Notes under the pieces: generated by a model
Databases searched by the model: none
Told to the model about the DNA's origin: nothing
What the model saw: only the letters and a program-made list of their open reading frames with translations
DNA from: a phage
Assembly: GCA_012702815.1 (NCBI GenBank)
Contig: GCA_012702815.1_3927.1
Length of the DNA stretch: 26,024 nucleotides
Direction: 5' to 3' (one strand)
Translations under genes and position numbers: made by a program
In this document: positions 5,505-7,040 of the stretch, in pieces
Position numbering within the stretch: position 1 is the stretch's first letter
Layout of the letters: each line of letters opens with the position of its first letter

Positions 5505-5633
5505 TTTTTAAAAGGTCTTTAAGAGGGTCTTTTAATAAGGTGCTGTATGGTAAGGTGATGTCTGGTGTGGTAGGGTGAGGTTAAGTGAGGTGAGGTATGG
5601 GTGGATGGTAGTAGCCACGTTAAAAATCTACCA
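5505..5633 (+). repeat. composite repeat module A2 (type-2 header + 12 phased pentamers + hairpin)
   Basis: Header TTTTTAAAAGGTCTTTAAGAGGGTCTTTTAATAAGGT (5505-5541); phased pentamers 5539-5598; hairpin TGGTAG / CTACCA with 16-nt loop TAGCCACGTTAAAAAT (5606-5633). A degenerate third header copy follows at about 5642-5668. Confidence 0.8.
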
Positions 5634-5708
5634 AGTTTCTAAAGAGTCTTCTGTTGAGGGTTCTTTACAAACAACTTAACAATCAACTAAAGTGTGGAGC
5701 TAAATGCT

Positions 5709-6296
5709 ATGAAACTGTTAAATATCAAAATCACTGGTACTCGTCCTTTCCTGAGCCATAACGATACACTGTCAGACCCATTAAACCCTCTGACTAAATA
5801 TCACAAGTCTCTGTCCAGTAAACGTAAAAAGACTGACGAAGACTATGCGCTCTTAGCAGAAAGCCAACTGGTAACTTCTTGTTACTACGATGAGCAACTA
5901 GGTTTTGTTATGAACGGTGAGATGATTGAGGCTTGCATCAAGTCTGGTGCGAAACTCAACAAACTTGGTAAGGTAATTGACCGAGCCATTATGCTGACAG
6001 ATGTAGTCTTCCCAATGACTATCAAGAACTGTCCAGCAAACCCACAAGAACTTGCTAAGAATCCAGACTTCATCTATGCTAAGTCTGTTAAGATTGGTAC
6101 AGCACGAGTTATGAGCTACCGTCCAATCTTCCGTGACTGGTCTGTAGAGTTTGGATTGATGTTCGATGAAGAGCAAATCACCAAAGAGGAGCTTCTAATG
6201 GTTCTTGAAAATGCTGGTAACCTTTGTGGTGTAGGTGATTGGCGTCCACGCTTTGGTCGTTTTTCTGTAGAAGTTATTTCAGAAGGTAACGTTTAA
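5709..6296 (+). CDS. hypothetical protein (first gene of repeat-bracketed cassette)
   Basis: ORF 5694..6296 (GTG); ATG 5709 preferred, with GTGGAG 9 nt upstream. No recognisable motif. Confidence 0.6.
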
Positions 6297-6298
6297 TT

Positions 6299-6739
6299 AT
6301 GAATACAAAAGCATTAGCAGCAAAGTTTAGTTACGGTGACACTGTATCACACTCTGAGATGGACACCTTCTTAGGTATTGTGAAGCCAACTTATCAAGGT
6401 GACATTGTTAAGTACGAAGATGAAATGAAGGCTTATGCGCTTACACGTCTAAACCGACTTGAAAAGTTTATTGAAAAACTTCTTAAAGAAGAGAAGATTT
6501 ATCTGGTTGCTTCAATGGGTGTTGGTTATCGTGTGGTTGAACCTAAGCATCAAGCAACTATTGCAAAACGCAAAATGTCTGGTAAGATTGGTCGTGCTTT
6601 AAAGCAAGCCACTCAAGCGATTGAGAATGTGAACACTATGGCACTTAGTCATCAAGAACGTTCACGACTGATTGAACAGCAAAATCACTTAGCTGCTATG
6701 AAAGCTAATATTAACAAGCAACGCAGAAAACCTTTCTAA
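6299..6739 (+). CDS. hypothetical protein (second gene of repeat-bracketed cassette)
   Basis: Starts 2 nt after the upstream stop; followed by an intrinsic terminator at 6751-6773. Lys/Arg-rich C-terminus. Confidence 0.6.
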   Translation: MNTKALAAKFSYGDTVSHSEMDTFLGIVKPTYQGDIVKYEDEMKAYALTRLNRLEKFIEKLLKEEKIYLVASMGVGYRVVEPKHQATIAKRKMSGKIGRALKQATQAIENVNTMALSHQERSRLIEQQNHLAAMKANINKQRRKPF

Positions 6740-6750
6740 GTTGACTAGGT

Positions 6751-6773
6751 AGCCTCTTCGGAGGCTCCTTTTT
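6751..6773 (+). terminator. intrinsic terminator after the two-gene cassette
   Basis: Stem AGCCTC / GAGGCT with TTCG tetraloop (6751-6766), then CC and TTTTT (6769-6773). Confidence 0.6.
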
Positions 6774-6902
6774 AAAAGGTCTTTAAAGAGGGTCTTTTAA
6801 TAAGGTAAGGCACGGTTATGTCAGGTATGGTACGGTACGGTTAGGTAAGGTGAGGCGGAGTAAGGTATGGGTAGTTAATCGGAGCTACATTAAAATTCGA
6901 TT
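6769..6902 (+). repeat. composite repeat module B1 (type-2 header + phased pentamers + hairpin)
   Basis: Header matches A2 apart from a single 1-nt indel (6769-6806); pentamers 6804-6868; hairpin AATCGGA / TTCGATT with the same loop as A1, GCTACATTAAAA (6877-6902). Confidence 0.8.
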
Positions 6903-7040
6903 ACATCACTTAAGAGTCTTTTAAGAGGGTTTTTAAGTGAGGTGTGGCACGGTAATGTTAGGTAGGGTCAGGTCAGGTCAGGTGAGGTAAGGTAAGGTGA
7001 TGTATGGAAGGATGGCAGTAGCCTTATAAAAAATCTGCCA
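6903..7040 (+). repeat. composite repeat module B2 (type-1 header + phased pentamers + hairpin)
   Basis: Header matches A1 apart from a single 1-nt indel (6906-6938); pentamers about 6936-7005 including GGTCA x3; hairpin TGGCAG / CTGCCA with loop TAGCCTTATAAAAAAT (7013-7040). Confidence 0.8.

Follow-up and report, generated by a model that had tools for sequence, protein, structure and literature searches.

Introduction

VIPR, described only recently, is a minimal system for RNA-guided DNA binding. Its components are a small protein with a RAMP fold (Vipr), an accessory protein (Vap) and guide RNAs called vrRNAs (10.64898/2026.04.26.720920), and the system performs CRISPR-like RNA-guided DNA silencing (10.64898/2026.04.26.720920; 10.64898/2026.04.26.720927). 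The subject of this work is a pair of short hairpins at positions 5606–5633 and 7013–7040 of a 26,024-nucleotide stretch of phage DNA (GenBank assembly GCA_012702815.1, contig GCA_012702815.1_3927.1). We call this whole stretch the window, and positions refer to it unless another record is named. Our results indicate that the hairpins are, with very little doubt, part of the invariant 3′ tails of two vrRNA guides that belong to a type II VIPR system of the SUSP1 clade.

The model locus, that of phage SUSP1, contains two genes flanked by intergenic vrRNAs. Each vrRNA has 9–16 YNNGG repeats, in which GGY is conserved and NN is hypervariable, followed by an invariant pseudoknot tail. Small-RNA sequencing of SUSP1 revealed four vrRNAs, each about 100 nt long; one lies ahead of the genes and three follow them, and these RNAs co-purify with Vipr (10.64898/2026.04.26.720920). 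In the SUSP1 Vipr–vrRNA1 complex the 3′ pseudoknot has been resolved by cryo-electron microscopy (10.64898/2026.04.26.720927). One Vipr protomer binds each pentamer with GGY flipped out, the NN dinucleotides pair with double-stranded DNA read as NNxNNx... (the 1-nt skip rule), and binding of the Vipr–vrRNA complex silences transcription of a competing element. It has also been proposed that VIPR predates CRISPR (10.64898/2026.04.26.720920; 10.64898/2026.04.26.720927).

The window derives from a Felixounavirus and is 99.5% identical over the region to Escherichia phage vB_EcoM_ASO1B. Its locus shares with that of SUSP1 the gene pair, the YNNGG tracts, one tail form (type 2a, see below) and the class of target, an E. 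coli satellite. The array layout is similar, with two vrRNAs on each side of the genes in the window as compared to one upstream and three downstream in SUSP1. The two loci differ in phage genus (SUSP1 is a Suspvirus), in vrRNA number and in the guides, which are entirely different, and one guide of the window has 19 repeats as opposed to the published 9–16. These differences fall within one published clade. A more distant likeness exists to the CRISPR RNA (crRNA) handle of Class 1 CRISPR systems, bound by Cas6 or Cas5: in both cases a constant structured end caps a variable guide on a RAMP-fold filament. In VIPR, however, the guide is a gapped pentamer code and not a contiguous spacer, and the constant part is a 3′ pseudoknot and not a repeat hairpin. 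VIPR has no CRISPR array, Cas1/Cas2 or known acquisition machinery and belongs to no CRISPR type.

Tail hairpins and their pseudoknot fold

The hairpins lie at the ends of two of the four vrRNAs of the window, designated A1, A2, B1 and B2:

5343–5504, plus strand: vrRNA A1, with a leader (5343–5373), 19 YNNGG pentamers (5374–5468) and a type-1 pseudoknot tail (5467–5504)
5505–5600, plus strand: leader (5505–5535) and guide of vrRNA A2, 13 YNNGG pentamers (5536–5600)
5599–5633, plus strand: type-2a tail of vrRNA A2, with helix 1 (5601–5604 with 5615–5618) and helix 2, which is hairpin A2 (5606–5611 with 5628–5633)
6770–6905, plus strand: vrRNA B1, with a leader (6770–6800), 14 pentamers (6801–6870) and a type-1b tail (6869–6905)
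6907–7007, plus strand: leader (6907–6937) and guide of vrRNA B2, 14 pentamers (6938–7007)
7006–7040, plus strand: type-2b tail of vrRNA B2, with helix 1 (7008–7011 with 7022–7025) and helix 2, which is hairpin B2 (7013–7018 with 7035–7040)

Hairpin 5606–5633 reads TGGTAG-TAGCCACGTTAAAAAT-CTACCA and hairpin 7013–7040 reads TGGCAG-TAGCCTTATAAAAAAT-CTGCCA, exactly as given in the first-pass annotation of this DNA, which also pointed out that the single difference between the stems, T–A to C–G, is compensated. As isolated structures the hairpins are weak (−5.1 and −7.1 kcal/mol, z-scores −1.9 and −2.1). By our own estimate (4^-6 per position), about six 6-bp inverted repeats with a 16-nt gap are expected by chance per 26 kb. 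Their significance therefore rests on comparison and context and not on folding.

We aligned 13 distinct type-2 tails from phages and from E. coli satellites. The inner four base pairs of the stem are formed in 51 of 52 cells, with two independent compensated pairs: U–A to C–G in the class of 7013–7040, which is the change seen within the window, and A–U to C–G in most satellites. The 16 nt between the stem arms had been taken as a free loop, which does not hold, as their 5′ part can pair with four bases just upstream of the stem. In A2 the loop sequence CCAC (5615–5618) pairs with GUGG (5601–5604); in B2 CCUU (7022–7025) pairs with AAGG (7008–7011), both sides being changed relative to A2. 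This helix 1 is paired throughout the 13 tails and brings in two further compensated pairs. Considered jointly, the two helices are 90% paired (100% and 83%) with four compensated pairs, as compared to 24–55% in shifted-register controls. The pairing of the loop with upstream bases makes the type-2 element a predicted H-type pseudoknot, whose third loop is A-rich and 9 nt long.

The same is likely the case for the other hairpin type. Type-1 tails have a GUAG:CUAC helix and a second helix of 7 bp, which are always paired. One pair of the second helix runs through G–C, G–U and A–U across the phages, a series that points to an RNA read from the plus strand. The earlier suggestion of one conserved element presented in two stem contexts thus stands, since type-1 and type-2 tails share the H-type pseudoknot topology and follow the same kind of guide tract. 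The shared TAGC...TTAAAA core on which it was based belongs in part to the A-rich third loop and in part to helix 1. Altogether, the tails of the 29 loci compared below fall into four near-invariant types, and the tail of the upstream SUSP1 vrRNA is base for base identical to 5599–5633. A Vipr homolog with 48–49% identity (locus L154) has vrRNAs that end in a simple hairpin, GCUAC-UUU-GUAGC (2340–2420 and 3570–3640 of that record); this different tail indicates that the pseudoknot tail is specific to the SUSP1/Felix clade.

Hairpins that are intergenic, repeated and compensated, and whose stem can be formed by both DNA strands, could also extrude in single-stranded DNA (ssDNA) and present the A-rich loop as a promoter or as a replication-origin signal, as in phage N4 or ssDNA phages. 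The first-pass annotation had raised this role. Promoters of the N4 virion RNA polymerase have stems of 5–7 bp and 3-nt loops and act in DNA. They resemble the window hairpins in being short, conserved, intergenic phage hairpins with sequence-specific loops; they differ in that the window element functions as RNA, its 16-nt "loop" is pseudoknotted, and a guide tract with an NN code matching external targets (see below) always precedes it. In SUSP1 an identical sequence forms the 3′ end of an abundant, Vipr-bound RNA of about 100 nt and has been seen as an RNA pseudoknot by cryo-electron microscopy. The G–C/G–U/A–U series of the type-1 tails fits only plus-strand RNA, E. coli satellites hold the element between a promoter and a terminator, and according to the Felix O1 genome paper (PMC3185647) this phage group encodes no RNA polymerase. 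As the element works as RNA, a promoter or origin role in ssDNA is unsupported, and we consider it close to impossible.

Guide tracts

Each hairpin is preceded by a tract of GGY/NN pentamers, which is the main feature of the locus and was missed in the first-pass annotation. We compared 29 loci: the window, wV8, Moogle, UAB_Phi87, SUSP1, CL1 and 23 IMG/VR contigs (Felix O1 was added later). They yielded 83 modules, and 67 of the tracts are unique. From the leader to the hairpin, 63 of 65 unique tracts keep a strict 5-nt register, with 10–20 pentamers per tract. Within the pentamer one position is G in 98% of cases; it is followed by a pyrimidine in 99%, and the base before it, G in 79%, is never C. 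The remaining two positions are free and hypervariable. Both type-2 hairpins of the window follow such a tract of 65–70 nt in strict register, and the 89.5-kb ASO1B genome contains no tracts of this kind other than the equivalents of the four in the window. The sequence of SUSP1 (locus L007) itself shows a single vrRNA before the genes and three after them. Erwinia phages of the genus Kolesnikvirus have no intergenic region after the ligase gene and hence give no outgroup information.

Other roles were considered for the tracts, namely an R-loop/G-quadruplex origin (the non-template strand is G-rich), a TRAP-like protein-binding array, an antisense Rho-loading site, Shine-Dalgarno-like ribosome sponges, primase-site clusters and boxA/nut-like antitermination. 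All six were dropped, because the VIPR code better explains free NN positions together with a fixed GGY. Repeats of the genome ends were also considered, since in T7 short-repeat arrays adjoin the terminal repeat. They were rejected: the array is located at 58.1 kb of an 87.6-kb record, away from the terminal repeats, which are reported to be 608 bp long in UAB_Phi87.

A scan of IMG/VR for (GGTNN)x7 found similar degenerate arrays in many unrelated viral contigs. Examples are L053 (2307–3359), L043, L050, L042, L088, L090 and L104, where GGTNN tracts with their own conserved spacers form up to ten modules, and several of the arrays run right up to a Shine-Dalgarno sequence and start codon. Presumably these are other VIPR types.

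Satellite targets of the guides

In a BLAST search with the tails, 153 of 5,426 complete E. coli genomes proved to carry the type-2a tail; the type-1 tail together with the phage leader had no match in the same 5,426 genomes. The E. coli matches lie in an element of about 12 kb with genes for a serine recombinase, baseplate and tape-measure proteins, an HNH protein and a protein annotated as transposase. It is integrated at yecE, near yciI or near wrbA, and it matches the satellite described in one of the preprints (10.64898/2026.04.26.720920). The copy used as reference is:

4899–16804 of L157 (E. coli EC12 chromosome): satellite; also present in L159, L160 and L161, with a remnant in L158

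A unit of promoter, vrRNA, type-2 tail and terminator is present in seven of the eight satellite copies examined, those whose 3′ end is intact (14868–15075 in L157). The eighth, L158, is degraded and lacks the terminator.

The published 1-nt skip rule was scripted and applied to five E. coli satellites, with the maximum of 200 shuffles as the null and skips of 0, 2 and 3 nt as controls. All four window guides exceed the null on L157 at a skip of 1 only (null maxima 20–24), and the other skips give nothing. Guide A2 matches L157 10311–10348 at 21 of 26 positions, with an internal run of 20 of 20 contiguous matches; this target lies in the "transposase" gene, and the skipped bases fall on third codon positions. 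Guide B1 matches 14547–14587 (25/28), guide B2 matches 11605–11645 (23/28, null maximum 21), and the 3′ half of guide A1 matches the tape-measure gene (26/38 over the whole guide, null maximum 24). In the clade as a whole, 40 of 56 unique guides from loci with vipr reach an NN match of at least 80% in the five satellites; at this threshold only one of 56 does so when shuffled and four at other skips.

Exact-pattern scans of IMG/VR for the A2 and B2 targets gave no matches; a likely reason is the inclusion of non-pairing 3′-terminal pentamers in the patterns, and another is that the satellites may be absent from that collection. Megablast of the phage structural genes against E. coli genomes produced only tape-measure matches of about 180 bp, in strains other than those whose satellites were compared here. 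Satellites carry guides of their own. The guide of L158 matches L157 15520–15557 at 23 of 26 positions. The best 1-nt-skip match of the L157 guide (23/28) is at L157 19529–19569, a REP-like (repetitive extragenic palindrome) palindromic host sequence outside the element, which may be a chance match.

The satellites also bear on two other interpretations of the hairpins. The first takes the hairpins for features of ordinary intergenic regions, either rho-independent terminators or stem-loops that stabilise mRNA: the ASO1B record annotates predicted terminators in both intergenic regions, and the type-1 tail of A1 is followed by TTTTT. The ASO1B annotations, however, map elsewhere, inside tract A1 and in a leader (5433–5467 and 6906–6950), and are probably artefacts of the prediction tool on unusual sequence. 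There is no T run after either type-2 hairpin, and their short stems and 16-nt loops differ from the GC-rich stem, loop of 3–8 nt and T run of a terminator. A terminator scan finds only 6751–6766 and nothing at 5606–5633 or 7013–7040. Moreover, a separate GC-rich terminator follows the tail in the seven satellite units. We find the terminator or mRNA-stabilising explanation highly improbable.

The second interpretation is that the repeats are non-functional scars of duplication, left by insertion or loss of the gene cassette, with the stem complementarity being incidental. The cassette is indeed present in some relatives and absent in others, and it is flanked by similar modules. Such scars would hardly remain near-invariant next to tracts that are saturated with change, nor would they show compensated pairs. 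The tail is kept in unrelated genomic contexts, in 153 E. coli genomes, and the guides match targets far above the null. A scar origin has, in our view, practically no chance of being right. In the wV8 record part of the region is labelled "DR_4".

Vipr and Vap1

The two genes between the vrRNA arrays are:

5709–6296, plus strand: vipr, encoding a RAMP-fold guide-binding protein of 195 aa
6299–6739, plus strand: vap1, encoding an accessory protein of 146 aa

Window Vipr is 98% identical to SUSP1 Vipr, and window Vap1 is 99% identical to the SUSP1 protein encoded beside vipr. Vap1 matches no Pfam family. The structure of Vipr was predicted from an alignment of 67 homologs with a predicted local distance difference test score (pLDDT) of 95.1, and the model matches Cmr4, Csm3 and Cas7, which confirms the RAMP fold independently. 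Residues H17, K33, R138, D177 and W178, named as essential in the structural preprint and found by mutation or structure to bind GGY and the skip base (10.64898/2026.04.26.720927), are all found at the same positions in window Vipr; among the 67 homologs R138 is invariant and H17 nearly so.

The locus therefore has the features that define type II VIPR of the SUSP1 clade: a small RAMP-fold vipr gene with RRM core, G-loop and thumb, an adjacent vap gene, tandem YNNGG vrRNAs flanking the genes (19, 13, 14 and 14 pentamers), an invariant 3′ tail that is predicted to fold as a pseudoknot, and 1-nt-skip guides with satellite targets.

Layout of the locus

The two-gene cassette (5709–6739) is located 3′ of the DNA ligase gene, between the intergenic regions 5274–5708 and 6740–7131. 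Each region holds two modules, the first ending in a type-1 and the second in a type-2 hairpin. A module is built of a conserved leader of about 30 nt, a C-poor tract of 65–95 nt and the hairpin. The signals around the modules are:

5281–5308, plus strand: strong sigma-70-type promoter TTGACA-16-TATACT (11/12 in a consensus scan), driving the upstream vrRNA array and vipr–vap
6751–6773, plus strand: intrinsic terminator after vap1, with a GC-rich stem, TTCG loop and T run
7059–7087, plus strand: promoter TTGACA-17-TATTTT (10/12) of the downstream gene 7132–7515, annotated as a promoter in ASO1B and marking the end of the VIPR locus

The promoter at 5281–5308 is kept by all related phages, whether or not they have the cassette. 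An 8-bp inverted repeat, GGTGAGTA / TACTCACC (5296–5333), overlaps the −10 region of this promoter with one of its arms, and it is conserved in all relatives, the Vipr-less ones included. A 12-bp inverted repeat, AATAAGCTATAA / TTATAGCTTATT (7041–7086), brackets the −35 box of the promoter at 7059–7087 and is a candidate operator. A gene for a helix-turn-helix regulator lies downstream of this promoter at 7722–8021. In some relatives the "a"-type leader between two vrRNAs contains an insertion of about 25 nt, AAATTATACTCGATAAAGTATCTCAT (L008 2353–2380 in CL1 and L005 3747–3775 in Moogle). No Rfam 15 family reaches its gathering score anywhere in the window; evidently the vrRNA is not yet in Rfam.

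Tail classes and orphan arrays

In the window (5343–5633 and 6770–7040) and in 28 related loci a type-2 tail comes last in every array, after zero to two vrRNAs with type-1 tails. Among the related phages examined the 2a form always stands before vipr, and the 2b form is always the last tail before the next promoter. Satellites carry only type-2-like tails.

Felix O1 (L033 3602–3883) and UAB_Phi87 (L006 2130–2545) retain, along with the promoter, one or two vrRNAs whose tails are intact, but neither vipr nor vap. The same orphan arrays occur in eight metagenomic relatives (L009, L011, L015, L018, L019, L022, L026 and L030), and they are situated between the ligase gene and the homolog of window 7132–7515. 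An NN match of at least 80% to the satellites is reached by 4 of 10 orphan guides, which is not clearly above the controls. The text of the two preprints, figures aside, speaks of vrRNAs carried by satellites and mentions neither Vipr-less phages nor two tail classes nor satellites with type-2 tails only. The orphan arrays of Vipr-less Felix O1-type phages and the rule that a type-2 tail ends every array are thus possibly new side points.

Discussion

The reading of the hairpins as vrRNA tails suggests how the element could work. The window stem is helix 2 of the predicted tail pseudoknot, the 5′ part of the "16-nt loop" goes into helix 1, and the A-rich remainder is loop 3. By analogy with the repeat-derived handle of crRNAs, the tail may serve as the fixed end of the guide that sets the register and protects or marks the 3′ end. 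The type-2 form is probably the version used for the last vrRNA of an array and for stand-alone vrRNA genes.

Several points weigh against assigning the hairpins to vrRNA tails. The outer two pairs of the 6-bp type-2 stem are lost in satellites, and the compensated pairs stem from only three or four lineages, which means few independent events. Guide A1, with its 19 repeats, is longer than the published vrRNAs, and only its 3′ half matches the target. Expression, processing sites and exact 3′ ends of the window vrRNAs are carried over from SUSP1, and that "vrRNA1" of SUSP1 is the upstream RNA with the type-2a tail is inferred from the numbering in the papers. The preprint text shows that the tail exists and caps the filament (10.64898/2026.04.26.720920; 10.64898/2026.04.26.720927), and the more specific roles given above are proposals.

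Based on these results, the finding is real and functional. It is also already known, as the clade has been described, tested genetically and solved structurally, all in preprints of April–June 2026. The published picture of VIPR is unchanged by the window, which provides a ready-made natural case, having four guides whose targets can be identified. To that picture the orphan arrays and the tail-class rule add only small points. Since the tail is the constant RNA part of VIPR, knowing exactly how it folds is of use in designing guides and in looking for new systems.

It is also conceivable, though we regard it as rather unlikely, that the type-2 tail is a portable, self-sufficient handle of the VIPR clade and that guide-only loci act in trans on the Vipr of a co-infecting phage. 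This idea comes from three observations: the type-2 tail stands at the end of all phage arrays, the satellites have no other tail type, and it is kept, along with promoter and guide, in Felix O1-type phages that lost vipr/vap or never had them. If it is true, orphan guides could redirect the Vipr of a co-infecting phage or soak it up as a decoy.

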